Shown here: piece by piece, positions 2,893 to 16,218 of the stretch
Numbering within the stretch: position 1 is the first letter of the stretch
How the letters are laid out: each line of letters opens with the position of its first letter
Virus record (IMG/VR): IMGVR_UViG_3300032246_000381
Location: 1-64,000 of that record
Reading direction: 5' to 3' (one strand)
Length of the DNA: 64,000 bases
Source: a virus
Notes under the pieces: model-generated
Told to the model about the DNA's origin: nothing
Database searches by the model: none
Seen by the model: the letters and a program-made list of their open reading frames with translations, nothing else
Made by a program: the position numbers and the translations under genes

Positions 2893-3076
2893 TTTGCGTT
2901 TCTGCTTCGTGTGCTTCAGCTTGCAATCGGAGTTGATTGATTTGACGCAGTGTTAACCGTATTTTACGGGTATCGTCTTTTTTTAGAACAGAACTGTCCT
3001 TGCTATTGTCGTATCGACGATCAACCGCAAAGTCATTGTTCGAATCATTAAAATAAAGGAACTCTTTTAGAAGCAT
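2828..3076 (-). CDS. Small head-operon protein (82 aa, MLLKEFLYF...)
   Basis: ATG at 3076 just after the portal stop and a TAAATA; the ORF-track extension to 3286 overlaps the portal. Confidence 0.7.
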   Translation of the reverse strand: MLLKEFLYFNDSNNDFAVDRRYDNSKDSSVLKKDDTRKIRLTLRQINQLRLQAEAHEAETQSEQAFIQQMYSTPVEAESAPA

Positions 3077-3080
3077 ATTG

Positions 3081-3086
3081 TATTTA
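3081..3086 (-). promoter_or_regulatory. Late promoter TAAATA, 4 nt before the ATG
   Basis: Minus strand reads acTAAATAcaatATG. Confidence 0.55.
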
Positions 3087-3087
3087 G

Positions 3088-7607: not shown

Positions 7608-8471
7608 ATGAGTGAAATTAACAATCAGCAATCAATAGCAAAGAATCCTCTAGCCAATTGGTTTAGACAACCTAAGATTTATGTACAGTTACCTAGCAAA
7701 GGTAGATTTTATCCTCCTAACACTTTAGATGTTAGCGAAAACGATGAATATCCAGTATTTGCAATGACTGCCAAAGACGAGTTAATGTTTAAAACTCCTG
7801 ACGCATTACTCAGCGGACAAAGTACAGTTGAAATTATTAAGAGCTGTATTCCAGCAATCAAGGATCCTTGGACAATGCCCAGCATTGACGTAGACTTTGC
7901 TCTTATCGCTATCCGTATTGCTACCTATGGTGAAAATATGGAAATTGGTACTAAGTGTCCTGGATGTGAAACTGAAAATGATTATGATGTTAATTTAACT
8001 AACTGGTTAGGTATGTTTAGTCAATTTACATACAATGATACTGTAGCTGTTGACCCATTAGTTGTTACCATTCGACCCTATACCTATAAAGAAATATCTA
8101 AGACACAGATTAAAACACTTGAGCAACAGAAAATATTCAACATCATTAATGATGAAAAACTAGATGATGAACAGAAAGTTGAACAGTTTGGTAAGAGCTT
8201 TGTGAAACTAACTGAACTAACTGTTGATATTATCTGCGACTGTATCACTAAAATTGAAACTCCAGACGGTGCTAGTACAGACAAAAAGCAAATTAAAGAG
8301 TTTATTGATAACTGTAGCAAAGATGTTTTTGAAAAAATTAGTGCTCATCTTACCGCTATCAAAGAGCAGATTGAATTAAAAGCTCAAAATGTTCACTGCG
8401 AGGAGTGTGGTCAGGACTATGAAGTTCCGGTCACTATGGATCAGTCAAATTTTTTCGGCGTAAGATCTTAA
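7608..8471 (+). CDS. Baseplate hub/tail assembly chaperone (T4 gp26-like)
   Basis: LPSKGRFY, MTAKDEL, LIAIRIATYGE and two CxxC pairs (CPGC, CEEC); ends at a slippery site. Confidence 0.75.
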   Translation: MSEINNQQSIAKNPLANWFRQPKIYVQLPSKGRFYPPNTLDVSENDEYPVFAMTAKDELMFKTPDALLSGQSTVEIIKSCIPAIKDPWTMPSIDVDFALIAIRIATYGENMEIGTKCPGCETENDYDVNLTNWLGMFSQFTYNDTVAVDPLVVTIRPYTYKEISKTQIKTLEQQKIFNIINDEKLDDEQKVEQFGKSFVKLTELTVDIICDCITKIETPDGASTDKKQIKEFIDNCSKDVFEKISAHLTAIKEQIELKAQNVHCEECGQDYEVPVTMDQSNFFGVRS

Positions 8472-8496
8472 ATTTATCTCTGCCAGAGATCTTACG
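8450..8496 (+). promoter_or_regulatory. Programmed -1 ribosomal frameshift signal
   Basis: In-frame heptamer T TTT TTC at 8450-8456; perfect 10-bp stem cgtaagatct (8459-8468) / agatcttacg (8487-8496). Confidence 0.75.
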
Positions 8497-8683
8497 AGAA
8501 TCAGAGAAGTTAGACAAAGAGGCGAGAGCTATAAAAAAAGACTGCCTAAAGCTGTCTTGGTATATGCGAGGTCTTAGCTATTCAGAAGTTATGAATATGA
8601 GCTACGAAGAACGAGAAATAGTCGGTGAGATAGTTAAAGAAAATCTCGAAACAACTAAGAAATCTGGACTGCCGTTCTTTTAA
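8456..8683 (+). CDS. -1 frame extension of the chaperone (gp51/gpT-like C-terminal part)
   Basis: Not in ORF track. -1 frame open 8423-8683: RRKILNLSLPEILRESEKLDKEARAIKKDCLKLSWYMRGLSYSEVMNMSYEEREIVGEIVKENLETTKKSGLPFF; first ATG only at 8564. Confidence 0.75.
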   Translation, partial: RRKILNLSLPEILRESEKLDKEARAIKKDCLKLSWYMRGLSYSEVMNMSYEEREIVGEIVKENLETTKKSGLPFF

Positions 8684-9054
8684 TGAAATTGTCTTCTAAA
8701 ATCTGTAACAGCCTGTTGCTGTTGCGGATTTAATTCTTGATTGCGAAGACCGGCTGCTAGAGCCGATTGCAATACTTGAGCATTGATATTCGATGCCGGT
8801 TTTAAAGTTCCATTTTGAACCTGAGCAGAAATTGTTTTTAAATTATTAACATCTGCCGGTAATAATTTTTTACCATTTAGTAGCAAAGACAATACATCAT
8901 TTAATCCGTTTTGAACTAAATTAGTATCTACTGGTTTTTCTTTGCCTTTAAACCAAGTGCTTGGACTGAACAGATTCTTTGTAGCCTGATAGGCAGTCTG
9001 CATAGGATCAGGATCTCCTGCATCTACTTTACCAACTACTTCATTAATTCTCAT
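8680..9054 (-). CDS. Hypothetical protein, probable internal head protein
   Basis: 124 aa starting MRINEV; tightly packed behind the two upstream genes. Confidence 0.6.
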   Translation of the reverse strand: MRINEVVGKVDAGDPDPMQTAYQATKNLFSPSTWFKGKEKPVDTNLVQNGLNDVLSLLLNGKKLLPADVNNLKTISAQVQNGTLKPASNINAQVLQSALAAGLRNQELNPQQQQAVTDFRRQFH

Positions 9055-9055
9055 A

Positions 9056-10192
9056 TTAGTGTGTTCTAAAAATGCTGATCTTACCTTCAGCTACCATTCT
9101 ACGTTTTTCTGCAGCAATGGCTTTCAGTAGTGTTTCAGCAAGATTATTTCCTGTTCTAATAATGCTGTCTGATGTTGGACCCATAACACGTTCACGTTCT
9201 GCATCAATCTCAGCTTGCGACTGTTGTGGAGCAGGCGCAGCAGCAGTTTTCTTATTACGAGTACGTTTTGGTTTAGCACCTTGCTCTTGCCCAGGTGCTT
9301 GTTGTGTTGCATCTGCTGCTGGTGCTGCTTGAGTCGCATCTGCTGCTGGTGCTTGTTGTGTTGCATCTGCTGCTGGTGCTGCATTTGGATTACCTGGCTT
9401 AGCTTTATTTGTTTTGCTAACCGGAGCATTAGCCATTGTGTTTGCTGTAGAAGGTGCACCTAGACTGGCGGCCATATTGCCCATTGCAGCGGCACCTGCT
9501 GCATCACCTGCCGCTGCTTTAGGATCTGGTGTTCCTAACGACTTGTTTAGCAATGCTAAAATTCTTTGCTTGCCTTTCTTATCAAGTTGCCCAACTTGTG
9601 ATTTAACTTGAGCGTATAGTGTTTGTCCTGCTTTTTCTGCTGCTGGATTAGCTGGAGGTGTTCCTGTTGCGCCGTTTGTAGGAGCTGAACCTGCTGGTGC
9701 AGCCGCGCTGCCGCCTTGGGCATTACCACCTGCTACATTAACATTTGTTGTACTTGGTGCTGCTCCACCTGCTGGTGCTGCTCCACCTGCTGGTGCTGCT
9801 GCCACTGGTCTACCGCTAGAATCAAATCCACTGCCACCTGCTGGAGCACCGCCACCTGCTGGTGCTGCTGCACCACCGCCCGCTGCTGGTGCTGCTGTAC
9901 CGCCGCCTTGAGCGCCTGCTGCTGGAGCTGCTGCGCCACCTGCTGCCTGTTGAGGATCTGCTGGAGTTGGATTAGGATCTGCATCACCTGCTACTCTGGC
10001 TTTACCTGATGCAAAGCCTTTCTTAAATGCACGTCCCATACCTGCAACACCGCCTGCTACTGCGCCAACCCCTTTAGCAACACCGCCTGCAACATCACCT
10101 ACAACGCCACCAATCTTGTTTAAGATTGGTCCTTCTTCAAGATATTGTAGTTCGTGTATTTCTGATTCTGTTAGTAATTCTGTTAGTTTCAT
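9056..10192 (-). CDS. Ala/Gly/Pro-rich low-complexity protein, probable internal head protein
   Basis: Starts MKLTELLTESE; repeats of APAGG and APAADATQ; shares modules with the 490-aa neighbour. Confidence 0.65.
   Translation of the reverse strand: MKLTELLTESEIHELQYLEEGPILNKIGGVVGDVAGGVAKGVGAVAGGVAGMGRAFKKGFASGKARVAGDADPNPTPADPQQAAGGAAAPAAGAQGGGTAAPAAGGGAAAPAGGGAPAGGSGFDSSGRPVAAAPAGGAAPAGGAAPSTTNVNVAGGNAQGGSAAAPAGSAPTNGATGTPPANPAAEKAGQTLYAQVKSQVGQLDKKGKQRILALLNKSLGTPDPKAAAGDAAGAAAMGNMAASLGAPSTANTMANAPVSKTNKAKPGNPNAAPAADATQQAPAADATQAAPAADATQQAPGQEQGAKPKRTRNKKTAAAPAPQQSQAEIDAERERVMGPTSDSIIRTGNNLAETLLKAIAAEKRRMVAEGKISIFRTH
9293..9383 (-). repeat. Coding tandem repeat, about 27-nt unit x3 (APAADATQQ)
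   Basis: gcatctgctgctggtgct recurs three times at 27-nt spacing. Confidence 0.85.
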
Positions 10193-10193
10193 T

Positions 10194-11666
10194 TTAAGCG
10201 GTTCCTAATTGTTTTTGCAGATAGCTTGCGATACGCTGACGTTGTTTCTTATTTAACTTCAAAACTTGATCTTTGACTTGTTTATATGCACTGGCTGCTG
10301 CTGGTGTTTCAGCGGCTGCTGCACCTGCTGAGTCTATTTTCATATCGGCATAGACTTTGTCGACTATGTCCGATGTTACTTCCATACTGGCTAAAAACTT
10401 TTTGAGTTCTTCAGAATCCGTCGGCGATCCGTCTAGTTTCCACCCAGCTAGTAATTTTTCATAGGTAACTTTGTTGGTAATATTCTGTCCAACACGATCA
10501 ATACCCTTGCCTACTGCTGCTGCACCTTTCTTGATCCAATCCATCGGACCTTCATTTAGTTGACTAGCAGCAACTTTCTTTAATACAACGTAGACCTGGC
10601 CTTCACTAAGTGGACGAGTCTGACGATAATAACTTTCTTGTTTTGCGGGCATCGAACTTGCGCCAGCAACCGCACCTTGACTCAGTGCCTGCCCTGCTTT
10701 GGAAACACCGTTTATCCATTGTAGCAAGCTGTCGTTGCTCAGTTGAACTTGTCGAGCACCCTGCATAATACTGCTGATAGATGACTTGTATTCTGGTGTG
10801 TTTATTTCTCTAGCAATAGTTTTTAATGTATCAAAGCCACCTGCTTGACCATCCCTAATAGCATTCATTGCCTGTGTCACAGCTTCTCGCTGTTCTGGAA
10901 ACACTGTGATATTAAATCCCTGTATTGTTTCTGTAGAACTCATTCCAGGTGCGGTCAGTGTTTGTGTTGCACCCCAGTTGACTTTTTCTAGTCCTGCATC
11001 TTTAGGTCCAAACGGTATTGCTTGTTCTCTAAATCCACCAACCCAATTGCCTAACACTTCAAAGGCTTTGCCAGATAGATAACCCAGTGCTGCGGTCTTA
11101 ATACCTTTACCGATGGCAGTTGAAAGTTTTTCACCTTTTAGTAATTCTGTAGCACCTTTAAGTACTTGACCAGCAATAGCGCCGCCAACAGGACCACCAG
11201 CGAGCGAAGCGAGGGCCGTCAAGATTCCGATTACTGCTGCGGTCTTACCAGGATTATCCTTAACCCAAATAGCCAAGTTTGAAACTCCGTCAAGTATTTT
11301 ACTGTCAGGGAACTTGGTATTAATGTCATTCTTTAGTTTTTCGAACTTGGCATCAAAGTTCTTAACAGGAGTAGTGTCCTGTAGCCATTTACCTGCTTTG
11401 TCAATAATGGCATTGACCTGTTTAACTCCGTCTACACCAAGACCCGCTAGTGTTCTGTTGTTTCCACCTGCTACGGCCTGTTGCTCAACGTTCTTGAATA
11501 TGTCTTTTACTTGATCAGCTGTCAGAGTTGCTTCGATTAAAGGCACGAATTCATTATAGATGTTTTCTACAATAGTTCTTTGTTGCTGTGTTAGTCCATC
11601 ACACGATTCTTTTAATAATTGCTTTCTCGAATAGTTGTGATTTTCTAATAATTGTTCAATACGCAT
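10194..11666 (-). CDS. Hypothetical virion protein, probable internal head/ejection protein
   Basis: 490 aa starting MRIEQLLE; hydrophobic Gly-rich segment TAAVIGILTALASLAGGPVGGAIAG; TAAATA upstream. Confidence 0.6.
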   Translation of the reverse strand: MRIEQLLENHNYSRKQLLKESCDGLTQQQRTIVENIYNEFVPLIEATLTADQVKDIFKNVEQQAVAGGNNRTLAGLGVDGVKQVNAIIDKAGKWLQDTTPVKNFDAKFEKLKNDINTKFPDSKILDGVSNLAIWVKDNPGKTAAVIGILTALASLAGGPVGGAIAGQVLKGATELLKGEKLSTAIGKGIKTAALGYLSGKAFEVLGNWVGGFREQAIPFGPKDAGLEKVNWGATQTLTAPGMSSTETIQGFNITVFPEQREAVTQAMNAIRDGQAGGFDTLKTIAREINTPEYKSSISSIMQGARQVQLSNDSLLQWINGVSKAGQALSQGAVAGASSMPAKQESYYRQTRPLSEGQVYVVLKKVAASQLNEGPMDWIKKGAAAVGKGIDRVGQNITNKVTYEKLLAGWKLDGSPTDSEELKKFLASMEVTSDIVDKVYADMKIDSAGAAAAETPAAASAYKQVKDQVLKLNKKQRQRIASYLQKQLGTA

Positions 11667-11689
11667 TTATGATCCAAAGATATATGTGT

Positions 11690-11695
11690 TATTTA
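11690..11695 (-). promoter_or_regulatory. Late promoter TAAATA
   Basis: About 24 nt upstream of ATG 11666, right after the last hairpin of the structured region. Confidence 0.65.
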
Positions 11696-11700
11696 TTAAG

Positions 11701-12153
11701 AACGAGCTTACGCTCGTTTGCTTTTTCGCTTGCGCTCAAAGCACTTTTTTTCTTTCTTTTATTATTGAACTTATAGTAAGTGCGAAGCACTTTAAGTATT
11801 ATGCAGATTGTTCAGTCACACTTAACCCAGGACGGGTTAAGAAGCATTATGCGAGTTGCACAGTACACTTAGCGTTAAAGCAGTTACAGAGGCGGTCATC
11901 CGGTACCTCGAGCTCAGTCAATATGACGGTGGATCAATACATATACGCTAACATACGTATCAACCTAAGGGTTTCTCTCCCTTCTTTTTGCCTTGTTTTT
12001 CTTTTCAAATAACCAAATCGCAGGGCTTAGTAGCGATCGTCATCCTTTCGGGTAGTGGTTAAGCACCTTTGCGGCAAGGTTTTCCATCCCTGTGTACACG
12101 TAGACCAGGTTTAGAGCGCACGAAATTAGGCCTGCGCCAGCCAAAAAACCGCT
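11701..12153 (-). ncRNA. Candidate large structured non-coding RNA (unassigned family)
   Basis: Only long intergenic gap in the window; at least ten stems; G-U pairs and GNRA loops read on the minus strand; starts at the GIY-YIG stop codon. Confidence 0.55.
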
Positions 12154-12588
12154 TTATTTTGCCTTTGGTTGTTCTAAAAGACGCTGTCTAAGTATATTTG
12201 ATCCGCCAACTCTGACGTTTATAATGCCATTATAATAGTCATCAGTTTCTAAAACTCTACGTTCAAACTGTTCTCTAGCTTCTAAATAACTTAGTTCTGC
12301 CTTGGATTTGCAAAGATATAGTATTTCTCTTGTGAATTTTTCCGGACCTAATGCTTGGACGTCTGCGTTTAACCTATCAGATGAACCCCAGTATTCGCGC
12401 CAATCGCTTTCTACTGTGCTTCTTCTTTTAAGTTTTTTGCCTTTGAGTGGGGGTTTTGTACGTTTAAACTGTGCTAGTTTCTTGCCTATGTACTTCTGTC
12501 CGGTTACGGTGTTCGTGATTATGTAAACAAAGCCAATATAGCCTTCTGGGATTTCATCTACGGGTTGATTTTGATACGTCCATTGCAC
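12154..12588 (-). CDS. Stand-alone GIY-YIG (Seg-like) endonuclease domain protein
   Basis: GFVYIITNTVTGQKYIGKK, YWGSS, FTREIL, LEAREQF, YYN; 144 aa with no C-terminal DNA-binding domain. Confidence 0.85.
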   Translation of the reverse strand: MQWTYQNQPVDEIPEGYIGFVYIITNTVTGQKYIGKKLAQFKRTKPPLKGKKLKRRSTVESDWREYWGSSDRLNADVQALGPEKFTREILYLCKSKAELSYLEAREQFERRVLETDDYYNGIINVRVGGSNILRQRLLEQPKAK

Positions 12589-12819: not shown

Positions 12820-13436
12820 GGTTCTCGTCCAAGAAATACGTTACCTGATACAGAAATGCGTGTTTCTGTAGAATCGCTGAAAGGATATACACAGTGTCTC
12901 AATAGACTAGGAAACATCATAGTCTTTCCTACGCTGTTTTTGTCAACATTCATAGTTGCGCCCTGTGTGCGTCCTAGTATATCTGTATAGGTAAACTCCA
13001 ATTGACCACTAAACTGATCTTTAGTATAGTCTACTACATCGGGAATTCTAAGCCAGATAGTGTAACTCAGTACTCCGCCGTGCATATGATTGGGAATAAA
13101 CTCCCCAGCCTTTTGAAAATTGATCCAAGGACGTTCACAGTAGTATTCTGGAGTGATATTAGGAGCATCAAAGGTCATTAGATAGTGACAGCTATTTCTG
13201 TACAACTGTGTGCATTCTAGAATATACTGTTTTAGTAGATCTTCTGTAGGTTTAGTGAACCGGTAGTGCTTAGGTACACCTTTAGAAGTTAATCCTGAAG
13301 CAGTTTCTTCAGCTGATGCAACATCTTGTTCTATTTGATCTACTTCAGACAGCATTTTAACCAATAGATCTTTAGGAGCAGATGCCCTAAAGATATTCAT
13401 ATTAGTTAATGCTATGTTGCCGCTGTCAAATTTCAC
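12816..13436 (-). CDS. Putative 2OG-Fe(II) oxygenase
   Basis: WINFQKAGEFIPNHMH (HxH), FPSLLRHCVYP, RISVSGN. Confidence 0.8.
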   Translation of the reverse strand: MKFDSGNIALTNMNIFRASAPKDLLVKMLSEVDQIEQDVASAEETASGLTSKGVPKHYRFTKPTEDLLKQYILECTQLYRNSCHYLMTFDAPNITPEYYCERPWINFQKAGEFIPNHMHGGVLSYTIWLRIPDVVDYTKDQFSGQLEFTYTDILGRTQGATMNVDKNSVGKTMMFPSLLRHCVYPFSDSTETRISVSGNVFLGREP

Positions 13437-15211
13437 CCAACAATCTCCACGTCATTGCTATAACTGGTAAATCCGTTTTCTTTAATAACCTTGAGCACGT
13501 GATTAACACGACTGGTTAGATCATCACGATGTGAAATTAAGAATACATTCTTATCTCGTTCACGAGTCATCTTCTTAAGTACTGCAATTGAGCTTTCAAC
13601 CCCGGAACTATCCATCCCGCTGTCTACAAGTTCGTCGATGAACAGTAAGTTAATGCTGTGATATAGGTTCTCCCACACATCTCGGAATGCCCAGGACATA
13701 CTGAGTATCAAACGGTTACGTTCACCACGGCTTAAATTGTCAAAGTCTAGGTCTTGGCCTAGCTGTGTGATAATAACTGTTAGGTCATTCTGGAATTCTA
13801 CAATGTGCGGTAAGCCAATCTTGTCAAGATAGTAAGTCAATCGTTGATTCAAGAACGCTAGATTCTGATCAATAATTCGTTTACGCACAAAGCTGTCTTT
13901 GTTTGTCAGTAACTTATACAAGAACTCCTGATGTTCTTTAACACGTACCAGCTCATTGACCTGATTCCAATCAATTTCCTGCACCGCAGTAGTTTTCAGT
14001 TCAGTGATCTGATCGTCGTAGGGATTAGATTCGGCAACTTTAACAGTTAGATCACGTTCTAGACTGTCAATTGTGCTTTTATGATTAAGCGCCTGCTCTA
14101 GTGTGTCGTAGAACACCTTAGGCATCGGACCCAGTTCACCTACTTCTTTGAGAGCATCTGTAAGTTCAATCCACTGAGTGTTATCTGAGAGGTATTGTAG
14201 CGCAGACTCTTGTAGAGCTTTCTTTTTACCTGCCAGCACTTCTTCGTGTTTGGTATCGTGTAGGTCTTGACCACAGGCATAACACTTGTGATCTTCGAGA
14301 TCTGCAATTTCTTTTTTCAGTTTATCGCTTTGCTTGGTATCTCGTTCCATATCCAGCTCAGCACGAGCAATAGCTTTAGTTAGATCTGCGATGTCTTTGC
14401 TTTTGCTATTGTATTCAATTAATGATCTATGTGCTAGAATCTCTGAGTCAATATCAATATGACTCAGTGTTTCAATACTCTTACGTAGATTATCCAACGC
14501 ACTTTCTTTAGTTTCTTCCCACATACGCTGTTTTCTTTCCAGCGATTCAATACTCTGTTGAATACGTTCATTTGAAACTTTGATAGTTTCGATGCGAGTA
14601 TTTTCTGTAGTGATTGCATCCTTGGTAATCTTGGTCTGTTCTTTAAGAGCTTCTGCTTTTTCACTCAACAGAGTAATACCCAACAACTGCTCAATGATCA
14701 TACGCTGTTCAGCAGCCTTAGTTGCCAAGAACGGTTCTGTGTAGGTATTCAACGCCACTAGATGCTTGAACATCTCGTGCTTCATACCAAACATCTCTTC
14801 AATTGCCTTCTGTGTTTCTCTGCTGTCGCCCTGACTTTCGTCTAGATCTTCTAGTTCTTGTTCCTGACCGTTGACACTGAACTTTAGAACATTGGGTTTA
14901 CGACCACGCTCAATGTGATAGTCAATGCCATCCTTTTCAAAGCTGACAGTTACCAACATACCTTTGCCGTTGATCTTGTTAATCAAGTTATCACGTTTGA
15001 TATTTGTCAATGCCTGTCCGTAGATAGCATAGCTAAGACCGTTAATGATTGTGGTTTTACCTGTGCCGTTACGAGCTCCGCTGTCGTCTCCTCCTAGATC
15101 TAGGTTTTCACCTAGCACCAGAGTCAGCTGTCCTCGATCAAAGTCGATGGCCTGGGTCTGTGCGCCCACGCTCATAAAATTACGTACTGTGAGATTCTTA
15201 ATTTTTATCAT
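13433..15211 (-). CDS. gp46: Recombination endonuclease ATPase subunit (gp46/SbcC/Rad50)
   Basis: Walker A NGTGKT, zinc hook CYAC, signature LSRGE, Walker B LLFIDE, ISH. Confidence 0.95.
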   Translation of the reverse strand: MIKIKNLTVRNFMSVGAQTQAIDFDRGQLTLVLGENLDLGGDDSGARNGTGKTTIINGLSYAIYGQALTNIKRDNLINKINGKGMLVTVSFEKDGIDYHIERGRKPNVLKFSVNGQEQELEDLDESQGDSRETQKAIEEMFGMKHEMFKHLVALNTYTEPFLATKAAEQRMIIEQLLGITLLSEKAEALKEQTKITKDAITTENTRIETIKVSNERIQQSIESLERKQRMWEETKESALDNLRKSIETLSHIDIDSEILAHRSLIEYNSKSKDIADLTKAIARAELDMERDTKQSDKLKKEIADLEDHKCYACGQDLHDTKHEEVLAGKKKALQESALQYLSDNTQWIELTDALKEVGELGPMPKVFYDTLEQALNHKSTIDSLERDLTVKVAESNPYDDQITELKTTAVQEIDWNQVNELVRVKEHQEFLYKLLTNKDSFVRKRIIDQNLAFLNQRLTYYLDKIGLPHIVEFQNDLTVIITQLGQDLDFDNLSRGERNRLILSMSWAFRDVWENLYHSINLLFIDELVDSGMDSSGVESSIAVLKKMTRERDKNVFLISHRDDLTSRVNHVLKVIKENGFTSYSNDVEIVG

Positions 15212-16218
15212 AGTTCTTGGTAAATTCCTAACAGCAGATTTTTGTCATAGCTGTCACTGTCAATAGCATTGATCTGATTCATCACAATCGTGTCAACACT
15301 TTCAAAGTTAATGTCAATTGGTGTGTGGTTGCTTTCAACTTCTACTTTTTCTGGAATAAGCATCAGTTCACGCAGTTGGAATTCTAGCATAAACTTTTCT
15401 TTGATATAGTTTGCTTCTTCAAAAGTGATAGGCAAGTCGATGGTTACACGACAGTGCATTTTTTCACGCAGTAATTTTTCTGGTGTGTCGATGATCTGGC
15501 TTAATTTGTATGTTCTATATATCGGTTGAGCGTCCCAAGTTAAGTACTCAGGTTTCCCACCCCACTCGAGAATCATCATACCGCGATCATCATCGCCGGC
15601 ATCTGCATAATTGTGCGGAAACGCATTACCAATATAGGTAATGTTGCCTTTAGTCTGACGCTTGTGAAAGTGTCCACTGAATACATATTCCTGGTTAACG
15701 AAATCATCACCTTTCAACTGACCGTGATCGGGCATCTGTACCATAGCATTCATATAGAATAATGGTAATTCAAAGTGTCCAAACACATAACGGCTTTTCA
15801 GCTTAGGTACAGTCTTCCATTCATCACCGACTAGCCAAGGCATAATGGTTACACCACCTTCTGTCAGTGTTTCTTTAATTGGAATAACGTTTGGAAACAG
15901 ACGCATAAATTCAACAGAGTTGATTTCTCGCTTGTCTTTGTAGAATAGATCGTGATTGCCTAATATGAAATAAACCTTTTCAAAGCTCTGACTAAGTTTT
16001 TCCAAATTAGATACTGTATAGTTCATAGTACTAACGTCTGTAGTACTACGATTGTGGTGCCAATCGCCCAAGAAAATTGCTGTTTCGCAATTTTCCCGCT
16101 TCGCGGTTTCGCAAAACCAAGTCACAAAATCTTCGCAATCTTGATTATGGGTACGGCTACCAGATTTTAAACCGAAATGTATATCGGTAAAACACGCTAC
16201 TTTTTTGAATAGTTCCAT
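15208..16218 (-). CDS. gp47: Recombination endonuclease nuclease subunit (gp47/SbcD/Mre11)
   Basis: Metallophosphoesterase motifs DIHFG, GDWHH, GNHD, GHFE, SGHFH. Confidence 0.95.
   Translation of the reverse strand: MELFKKVACFTDIHFGLKSGSRTHNQDCEDFVTWFCETAKRENCETAIFLGDWHHNRSTTDVSTMNYTVSNLEKLSQSFEKVYFILGNHDLFYKDKREINSVEFMRLFPNVIPIKETLTEGGVTIMPWLVGDEWKTVPKLKSRYVFGHFELPLFYMNAMVQMPDHGQLKGDDFVNQEYVFSGHFHKRQTKGNITYIGNAFPHNYADAGDDDRGMMILEWGGKPEYLTWDAQPIYRTYKLSQIIDTPEKLLREKMHCRVTIDLPITFEEANYIKEKFMLEFQLRELMLIPEKVEVESNHTPIDINFESVDTIVMNQINAIDSDSYDKNLLLGIYQEL

Follow-up and report, generated by a model that had tools for sequence, protein, structure and literature searches.

A ~445-nt pseudoknotted RNA of T4-like phages and bacterial chromosomal islands that extends the Polynucleobacter-1 RNA family

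In the stretch of viral DNA analysed here (64,000 nt, positions 1 to 64,000 of the 72-kb IMG/VR record IMGVR_UViG_3300032246_000381; hereafter the window), the gene for a small GIY-YIG nuclease is followed on its own strand, the minus strand, by a structured RNA of ~445 nt. The existence of this RNA, its fold and its family membership are near certain: it is Polynucleobacter-1 RNA (Rfam RF01718), a family already known, in a new and far longer form. As for what it is, we favour, as rather probable, an autonomous RNA that acts in trans, an extended Polynucleobacter-1 RNA shared by phages and by chromosomal islands of their presumed hosts. Judged from its distribution, the RNA is likely to be independent of the nuclease, which is probably a conserved neighbour or operon mate in one phage lineage and not an obligate partner, because the RNA is also found in bacterial chromosomes without the nuclease gene. 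An earlier note on this DNA had proposed a new ribonucleoprotein built on a minimal nuclease; that proposal is to be downgraded, and it is the RNA itself that merits attention.

Identity, extent and fold of the RNA

When the full window was compared with Rfam, a single match emerged, to RF01718 on the minus strand. It scores 101.5 bits (gathering score 37, E 8.5e-21) and takes in all 141 positions of the model; the complete record gives the same result. The match covers the 5′ third of the RNA only (Table 1). In that third the RNA belongs to a known family, an outcome that the earlier note had named as speaking against its proposal, and the remaining ~300 nt have no Rfam entry, a permissive search of positions 11500-12400 having given nothing credible for the other ~340 nt. 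A model built for the 3′ core scores 171.5 bits in the record from which the window comes.

The RNA occupies a gap of 487 nt between the nuclease stop codon (12154) and the next minus-strand start (11666), which contains no minus-strand open reading frame (ORF), as the note had said. Its further claim that other gaps are under about 85 nt was overstated, because a crude ORF cover of the window leaves further ORF-free stretches of 255 nt (287-541), 208 nt (8472-8679) and 195 nt (2893-3087). A 108-aa ORF lies antisense within the RNA, on the plus strand (11686-12012); it is very probably not a gene, since comparable ORFs are open in only 10, 4 and 3 mapped loci.

Conservation begins ~12 nt past the nuclease stop codon, and not at the stop codon itself, where the RNA had been thought to start. 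In distant relatives, 70-78% nucleotide similarity to the window spans 300-500 nt of the gap, and the adjoining protein is only 49-60% identical in those same relatives; in most loci the next ORF begins at a similar distance, whichever ORF follows. At the 3′ end, the last helix (P14) covaries and is G+C-rich; an A-tract precedes it, and in relatives 3-5 U follow. A terminator scan places P14 on the plus strand (8 pairs and a T-run), and the minus-strand tail in the window is UUCUU; this terminator-like hairpin would probably work in both directions. Just past it lies a conserved block, AATAAATA, with AAUAAAUA at this place in the window, which we presume to resemble the T4-type late promoter TATAAATA.

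The fold was derived from relatives. From 96 near-full-length copies, 70 that were less than 97% alike were kept, and covarying columns were sought in these. The resulting model has 94 pairs in ~17 helices, two pseudoknots (PK1 and PK2) and invariant single-stranded blocks (among them CAGGGAUGGAA, CACUA and GGUACCGG..ACCGCC, the last of these contained in P9). The counts that follow come from a MAFFT alignment made without fitting to the fold, and the model itself was drawn from these same sequences. Of 6451 helix cells, 92.1% are paired; sliding the 3′ partners by 1-3 columns lowers this to 35-42%. Changes on both sides of a pair are found in 76 of the 94 pairs (36-42 in the slid controls), and the covariation score is 0.438, compared with 0.06-0.08 for slid and 0.18 for shuffled alignments; not one of 500 shuffles reached 0.438. 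The covariation that the earlier note had asked for as a check is thus present, and all 11 stems that it had drawn from the one sequence correspond to helices of the model (Table 1). Absent from its list were the long-range helix P0, helix P8 and the two pseudoknots. P0 closes the 5′ and central domains and is the weakest helix of the model.

Three lines of evidence place the RNA on the minus strand, as had been proposed. The helix cells of the 70-sequence alignment contain 484 G.U or U.G combinations and 109 A.C or C.A combinations; folding of the single sequence gives z -3.17 for the minus strand, which none of 100 shuffles matched, and z -1.42 for the plus strand, which 9 of 100 did; and the Rfam match is on the minus strand.

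Two further co-changes stand outside the helices. Positions 12043 and 12053 (RNA positions 113 and 103), beside P4a, change jointly as C..U or U..C without forming a standard pair, and may make a tertiary contact. The second set comprises 11930, 11837 and 11825 (RNA positions 225, 318 and 330): RNA position 225 changes in step with the 5′ arm of P11 and is able to pair with the 3′ arm, which hints at an alternative pairing or a triple.

An unusual feature of the RNA is a pair of 13-nt direct repeats, R1 and R2, which flank hairpin P11. Their variable letters differ among sequences (NN is GC, AG, GA, GG or AC, and RAN is AAT, GAA, GAG or GAT) and are the same in R1 and R2 of a given sequence in 66 of the 70 representatives. 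Bacterial copies of the RNA show the same identity behaviour with four other variable letters. Because the two repeats covary by identity, they may both meet one common partner. No standard RNA model accounts for such co-varying direct repeats. Small ORFs and C/D-box-like motifs were considered for R1 and R2 and rejected by eye, the frames not being kept in the bacterial copies.

Table 1. Features of the RNA and of its surroundings in the window, with the stems that the earlier note had listed
Feature	Position	Strand	Evidence or remark	Stem in the earlier note
Whole structured RNA, ~445 nt	11698-12142	minus	from start of Rfam match to U-rich tail after P14	
5′ domain, RF01718 (P1, P2, P3, P4, P4a, P4b)	12007-12142	minus	101.5 bits; covariation helices 2-7 with compensatory changes	
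P1		minus		12115-12138
P2		minus		12089-12109
P3		minus		12065-12080
P4, P4a (GAAA loop), P4b		minus		12011-12060
P0, long-range 3-bp helix (12140-12142 with 11843-11845)	11843-12142	minus	90.3% paired; double-sided changes in 2 of 3 pairs	
P5 hairpin	11967-11982	minus	double-sided changes in 4 of 4 pairs	11967-11983
P6 hairpin, conserved loop UUAGCG	11934-11962	minus	double-sided changes in 9 of 9 pairs	11934-11963
PK1 pseudoknot, P6 loop 11945-11951 with 11869-11875	11869-11951	minus	97.3% paired; double-sided changes in 7 of 7 pairs	
PK2 pseudoknot, 11923-11927 with 11895-11899 (P9 loop)	11895-11927	minus	92.5% paired; double-sided changes in 3 of 5 pairs	
P8, 11912-11915 with 11878-11881, encloses P9	11878-11915	minus	covariation helices 12-14	
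P9	11889-11909	minus		11889-11909
R1, direct repeat A-CUC-NN-AU-RAN-G	11846-11858	minus	single-stranded in model; identity covariation with R2	
P11 hairpin between R1 and R2	11821-11841	minus	97.3% paired; double-sided changes in 4 of 8 pairs	11821-11841
R2, direct repeat A-UCU-NN-AU-RAN-A	11798-11810	minus	single-stranded in model; identity covariation with R1	
P12 hairpin, UUCG-type loop, then variable A-rich linker	11778-11792	minus	inner 4 pairs 80.5% paired, double-sided changes in 4 of 4	11778-11792
P13 hairpin	11720-11742	minus	covariation helices 18-19	11719-11743
P14 terminator-like hairpin, GUAA loop, A-tract before, U-rich tail after	11701-11718	minus	98.8% paired; double-sided changes in 6 of 7 pairs	11701-11718
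AAUAAAUA, late-promoter-like, ahead of next gene (start 11666)	11690-11697	minus	conserved block AATAAATA after P14	
144-aa SegE-type GIY-YIG gene, upstream neighbour of RNA	12154-12588	minus	Pfam PF19835; phrog_447	
SMC/AAA_23 protein gene (Rad50/gp46-like)	13433-15211		T4-like myovirus gene	
Metallophosphoesterase gene (Mre11/gp47-like)	15208-16218			
Baseplate hub protein gene	7608-8471			

Occurrence in phages and in bacterial chromosomes

In phages the order of nuclease gene and RNA is well kept. One sample was collected from the RNA: IMG/VR was scanned for a conserved piece of the RF01718 motif, and the Rfam model confirmed 35 of 49 searchable records. Among 57 loci with at least 250 nt of upstream DNA, the nuclease gene immediately precedes the RNA in 53, on the same strand; in three more another ORF separates the two and the gene lies 0.7-1.0 kb upstream. 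The last locus has too little DNA to decide. The nuclease gene is thus not sporadic, being present at every RNA-bearing locus with enough upstream DNA. In a second sample, collected from the protein (81-99% identity), the RNA is present in 74 of 80 loci, and the other six end within 44 nt of the gene. Altogether, the RNA lies on the same strand in 144 of 151 loci with the gene; six of the other seven end within 44 nt of the gene, and the seventh is Methylophilales phage Melnitz. The combination is abundant: close relatives of the adjoining nuclease are encoded in no fewer than 595 IMG/VR stretches, and 74 of the 80 that were fetched carry the RNA.

The linkage does not extend to all relatives of the nuclease. 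Melnitz, S-RIM8, ACP17 and BUCT608 have the gene without a long gap after it, and RF01718 is absent from their whole genomes. In these four genomes the 3′-core model finds only weak matches (at most 22.2 bits, compared with 171.5 in the record of the window), away from the nuclease gene; those in S-RIM8 (22.2 bits, partial) and in Melnitz (14.7 bits), both far from the gene, were taken as chance. The linkage that the earlier note had predicted therefore holds in uncultured freshwater T4-like contigs and is not general. Extra ORFs can also stand between gene and RNA (loci L039, L045, L049, L265 and L287).

Downstream of the RNA the neighbours change. Thirteen relatives (L003, L013, L021, L024, L027, L030, L034, L042-L045, L054 and L059) have only convergent genes there, the conserved one being a T4_baseplate protein; where a same-strand gene is present, it differs among phage loci (p490, p378 and others). 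Because of these 13 loci, the RNA would seem to close the transcription unit that includes gp47, gp46 and the nuclease gene. Sequence from the region is also found in libraries recorded as RNA. Among 20 holders of sampled words, from 16 studies, 18 rows are recorded as RNA and hold 13-27% of these words. In four RNA-library runs, assembled contigs overlap parts of the nuclease gene, of the RNA and of the flanking DNA, and two of the pieces bridge the border between gene and RNA; the contigs carry neither strand nor transcript ends, and carry-over of DNA is possible.

The same RNA is present in bacterial chromosomes. RF01718 was searched in 151 genomes of the genus of one metagenome-assembled genome (MAG) from lake water, and it scored over the cut-off in 17 of them, in some with two copies; in a sample of 151 genomes from the wider family it did so in one, which is also in the genus sample. 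One match in the genus has exactly the coordinates of the single genome-derived member of the alignment published in 2010, and the genus is therefore very probably Polynucleobacter. Eleven chromosomal places in this genus hold a full-length or 5′-domain homologue, with no GIY-YIG gene in the DNA examined. Eight of the loci, in seven genomes, align with the phage RNA over its full length, including R1, R2, P11, P13 and P14, and none of the eight has a GIY-YIG gene within ~8 kb. The pairing of PK1 is kept in the bacterial copies with different letters, and RNAalifold recovers the main helices from ten bacterial copies alone. In a pattern scan of genome contigs, all of the matches listed (at least 120) were due to chance, none of them being hit by the RNA profile. 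The only bacterial-labelled locus with a GIY-YIG gene (L334, G170:C80) has a Rad50-like gene, a 76-aa gene, the nuclease gene and the RNA on a phage-like contig inside a bacterial MAG; this is DNA of a phage, placed in the bin of its probable host.

At the bacterial loci the RNA belongs to a conserved island (L335-L342, in genomes G089, G163, G076, G174, G155, G187 and G078; for example L341:3769-13613), with two copies 18 kb apart in G163. A divergent DUF6641 gene lies ~170 nt upstream of the RNA, and after the RNA come the gene for a 188-aa tyrosine recombinase, two genes without assigned function and a gene for an RFC-like AAA protein; 423-aa integrases stand on the island flanks. The island is a candidate for an integrative element or for a satellite of a phage. 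The 188-aa protein, which matches only the catalytic domain of tyrosine recombinases, is encoded on the same strand 0.3-1.3 kb downstream of the RNA, sometimes with an opposite-strand ORF between them. It has no close relative in IMG/VR, none of the proteins of the island context occurs in the phage loci or in the window, and PADLOC gave only weak generic matches for the island proteins and the nuclease.

Two short conserved sequences frame the bacterial RNA. In L335-L342 an invariant TAAATAA, which extends to or reads as TATAAATAA in two of the loci, precedes it by 25-60 nt and is, we presume, comparable to a T4-type late promoter; if a phage late promoter drives the island RNA, the island would respond to infection. 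Just past the terminator in L336, L337, L339 and L341 is a conserved AAAATCACCAC, which in L337 and L341 sits between the inverted repeats TAGGTAG and CTACCTA. The small recombinase may use it as its site of recombination.

Some features of the phage surroundings may be added. The closest named phages to the window are the Methylophilales phages Melnitz, and a search of the window with ARAGORN detected neither a tRNA nor a tmRNA. Three minus-strand genes without family match (10194-11666, 9056-10192 and 8680-9054) separate the RNA from the baseplate gene; one product, of 490 aa, has a weak, tape-measure-like match below the cut-off, and the other two are of 378 aa (very Ala/Gly/Pro-rich) and 124 aa. 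Relatives have different genes or none at this place (8680-11666), which is therefore a variable cassette at the junction of transcription units. In 11 related loci radical SAM genes, sometimes in two tandem copies, lie between the Rad50-like and GIY-YIG genes (for example L043:1368-2465). Contigs with this nuclease gene reach 281,658 nt (L277) and 351,068 nt (P0093); since CheckV rates the 72-kb record as only 18% complete, the T4-like freshwater phages that carry the gene are probably very large.

Possible roles of the RNA

We suggest the following scenario. In the phages, the RNA would be the last element of a minus-strand unit that runs from the Mre11-like (gp47) and Rad50-like (gp46) genes to the GIY-YIG gene. 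It would be co-transcribed with the nuclease gene, probably by read-through, and would end at P14, a hairpin that would set the unit apart from what comes after it, whether the next genes or convergent baseplate genes. In the bacteria, the same RNA would be a stand-alone gene in integrase-flanked chromosomal islands, without the nuclease. It may work as a folded particle or scaffold, in which R1 and R2 could bind two copies of one partner in trans, either nucleic acid or protein. Because both the phages and the islands of their presumed host carry the RNA, a role in a contest between phage and island is possible, for example as a mimic or decoy.

Several observations weigh against this scenario. 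The distance from the end of the tblastn match of the nuclease to the RNA is 9-100 nt (one overlap of 20) in 139 of the 144 RNA-bearing loci, some of whose contigs are duplicated, and the adjacency of gene and RNA is the most conserved feature of the phage neighbourhood while both flanks vary. Such tight adjacency would fit a functional tie as well as an operon, and since all phage carriers belong to one lineage, synteny and function are inseparable in them. The bacterial copies also adjoin a DNA enzyme that consists of a catalytic domain only, which keeps alive the idea that the RNA helps a minimal enzyme. Searches for a partner of R1 and R2 gave no candidate: in cis, 10-mers with at most one mismatch yielded nothing that covaries, and 7-mers with G.U allowed, within 1.5 kb, yielded only an invariant GGUUGUUUGAA, which does not covary. 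Sites resembling R1 or R2 number 44 in the window against 41 expected, none is consistent in the bacterial loci within ±8 kb, and their counts in four whole bacterial genomes equal those of a reversed-pattern control. Action in trans and a conflict or decoy role are conjecture.

The principal alternative is that the RNA is a partner of the GIY-YIG nuclease, whether scaffold, guide, regulator or substrate, in a ribonucleoprotein of this phage lineage. The conserved and tight order, the large structured RNA on the strand of the gene and the character of the protein all speak for it. The 144-aa protein matches PF19835 (SegE_GIY-YIG) with 125.1 bits against a gathering score of 25 (E 2.4e-36), residues 3-123 covering model positions 1-123 of 123, and Pfam finds only this catalytic domain, so that the absence of an extra DNA-binding domain, which the earlier note had stressed, stands for the protein itself (longer fused forms were not searched for). 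Across 12 sequences, which include RNA-less relatives, Y22, Y33, R87, E103 and N120 are invariant and R56 nearly so; we take the Tyr, Tyr, Arg, Glu and Asn to be residues of the GIY-YIG motif, some presumably catalytic. An AlphaFold (AF2) model has a predicted local distance difference test (pLDDT) score of 78.9, and Foldseek against the PDB places GIY-YIG domains on top (among them PD-T4-3 and the I-TevI catalytic domain), weakly, at E 0.6-1; by sequence the protein has no relevant match in the PDB.

We nevertheless consider the partnership unlikely. The nuclease family occurs without the RNA in Melnitz, in cyanophages and in others, the RNA occurs without the protein in bacterial chromosomes, and ORFs can be inserted between the two. 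A Lys/Arg-rich stretch of the protein, the basic insert of the earlier note, would speak for a partnership, but the RNA-less Melnitz homologue has nearly the same stretch; moreover, the window protein is 64% identical to the Melnitz protein and 51-59% identical to those of the second RNA-linked clade. The family is large (6453 clusters at E <= 1e-5) and is found in 455 cultured-phage records, at a single place in each; 337 of these are Synechococcus phages, and many cyanophage records label the gene ‘NAD synthetase’, which looks like a propagated mislabel. For a guide, which the earlier note had also considered, neither a variable guide-like end nor a matching target was found, complementary or identical sites being no more frequent than by chance; the variable single-stranded letters are confined to 4-5 positions of R1 and R2. 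Nor does it follow from its size that the enzyme needs a partner, because T4 endonuclease II, a GIY-YIG enzyme of ~136 aa, acts without an extra domain. Of the ribonucleoprotein proposal, what survives is thus the large RNA on the gene's strand in a conserved order; what does not is a mutual dependence, as each occurs without the other.

A second alternative, which we hold to be quite unlikely, is an element acting in cis on a messenger RNA, either a 3′ untranslated region that stabilizes the nuclease operon or brings about its termination, or a 5′ leader controlling a downstream gene. The position at the 3′ end of a unit, with a terminator-like hairpin at the end, would suit the former; the recombinase gene that follows on the same strand in bacteria would suit the latter, as would the table of the 2010 catalogue, whose row marks the motif as an RNA (‘y’) and as cis-regulatory (‘y’), with ‘?’ for switch and 16 representatives from Burkholderiales and fresh water or estuary (PMC2864571). 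However, ~445 nt with two pseudoknots and invariant loops far exceed what a stabilizer or terminator needs. The phages do not place the RNA as a 5′ leader: in them it follows the gene, 13 loci have no same-strand gene downstream, and elsewhere the downstream gene varies. In bacteria the recombinase gene begins 0.3-1.3 kb past the terminator, sometimes beyond an opposite-strand ORF, and an alternative-pairing partner of the kind a switch would use was not found.

It is also conceivable, if decidedly unlikely, that the RNA is a pairing module for minimal DNA enzymes, in which R1 and R2 would each take hold of a copy of one and the same sequence and the RNA would bring the neighbouring enzyme (the GIY-YIG nuclease in phages, the 188-aa tyrosine recombinase in the islands) to these copies, in the manner of a bridge RNA. 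Two unrelated enzymes that consist of a catalytic domain only adjoin the same RNA family, and the variable letters of R1 and R2 agree in phage and bacterial copies alike, with no partner in cis. Against this, matching sites are not in excess in the window, in the bacterial loci or in whole bacterial genomes; the repeats have merely 4-5 variable positions; the nuclease family is mostly RNA-free; and the 188-aa protein matches models of small (~200 aa) tyrosine invertases, enzymes that exist without an RNA. A bolder form, very unlikely in our estimation, would make the RNA a portable module that lends target recognition to whichever enzyme adjoins it, a counterpart of bridge RNAs outside IS110 that is exchanged between phage and host; there is room for it because both contexts place a catalytic-domain-only DNA enzyme beside the RNA.

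A ribozyme, processing itself or acting on other RNA with incidental neighbours, appears very improbable. The large size, the pseudoknots and the invariant unpaired blocks would agree with one, and RNAs of such complexity have often proved catalytic; however, no ribozyme or intron family of Rfam matches positions 11500-12400 even at E up to 10, and no split gene surrounds the RNA. A group I intron carrying a GIY-YIG gene was rejected likewise, since no intron family matched at that threshold and the flanking ORFs are different, complete genes. Least probable by far is an element that works as DNA, such as a replication origin, a packaging site or iterons with R1 and R2 as binding sites: co-changing direct repeats are typical of repeated protein-binding sites and the region lies at a junction of transcription units, but pairing is kept on one strand only (the excess of G.U over A.C cells), long-range and pseudoknot pairings covary, an RNA covariance model matches, and the same element recurs in bacterial islands, whose demands of replication and packaging are different.

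By size and complexity of fold the RNA ranks among the few large RNAs of bacteria and phages, a class that has often led to new biochemistry. Because it is common to uncultured freshwater T4-like phages and to mobile islands of a cultivable genus, the question of its function is testable at the bench.

Comparison with known systems

Among nucleases, the closest counterparts are the Seg proteins and I-TevI. The protein of the window shares with them the whole-model match to PF19835 and a resemblance to the I-TevI catalytic domain (template modelling score 0.62-0.65 by target length, E ~1). It differs in that its 144 aa include no C-terminal DNA-binding part and in that the family has one copy in each of 455 phage records and is not sporadic; a free-standing homing endonuclease of the Seg type was rejected because Pfam found no joined DNA-binding domain and because of this regular presence.

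IscB and IsrB with HEARO (omega) RNA, and TnpB with its 3′ RNA, are precedents for a nuclease gene beside a large structured RNA in a mobile context. Here too a nuclease gene adjoins a large structured RNA, and as with TnpB the RNA is 3′ of the gene. In contrast, the nuclease is of the GIY-YIG and not the RuvC or HNH type, there is no variable guide end and there are no transposon ends, and gene and RNA are each widespread alone. An RNA-guided nuclease of the OMEGA type was therefore rejected, as the two occur separately and no guide segment matches DNA.

In the IS110 bridge RNA, two loops each read a DNA site. The RNA described here likewise has two segments that could each read a DNA site, and its bacterial form lies upstream of a small recombinase gene. 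Unlike that system, the recombinase is of the tyrosine and not the DEDD type, the RNA is ~2.5 times longer, R1 and R2 share their letters where the bridge RNA reads two different sites, and no target was found. A literature search on RNA-guided tyrosine recombinases returned, in what it covered, reviews and work on IS110 bridge RNA and seekRNA (PMC11208158, PMC13604230).

In size, number of helices, pseudoknots, discovery by comparison and presence in phages or prophages, the RNA is similar to GOLLD, ROOL and OLE. These are orphan RNAs of several hundred nt with many helices and pseudoknots, found in phages or prophages. It matches none of them in sequence or by model, and it differs in being fixed after one gene in phages and in having a second fixed context in one bacterial genus.

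Finally, the RNA is to be compared with Polynucleobacter-1 itself, a motif catalogued with 141 nt as RF01718 (Weinberg et al. 2010, PMC2864571). In the literature searched, only the 2010 catalogue describes the motif, other mentions of the accession being apparently automatic annotation, and the supplements of PMC2864571 that were examined hold no descriptive text on it. The window matches the whole of the model. Here, however, the motif makes up the 5′ third of a longer RNA (~445 nt), which has two pseudoknots, and most copies are in T4-like phage contigs, 3′ of a GIY-YIG gene and often with no gene downstream. A 141-nt Rfam entry of 2010 that had no follow-up is thus the front end of a much longer, pseudoknotted RNA.

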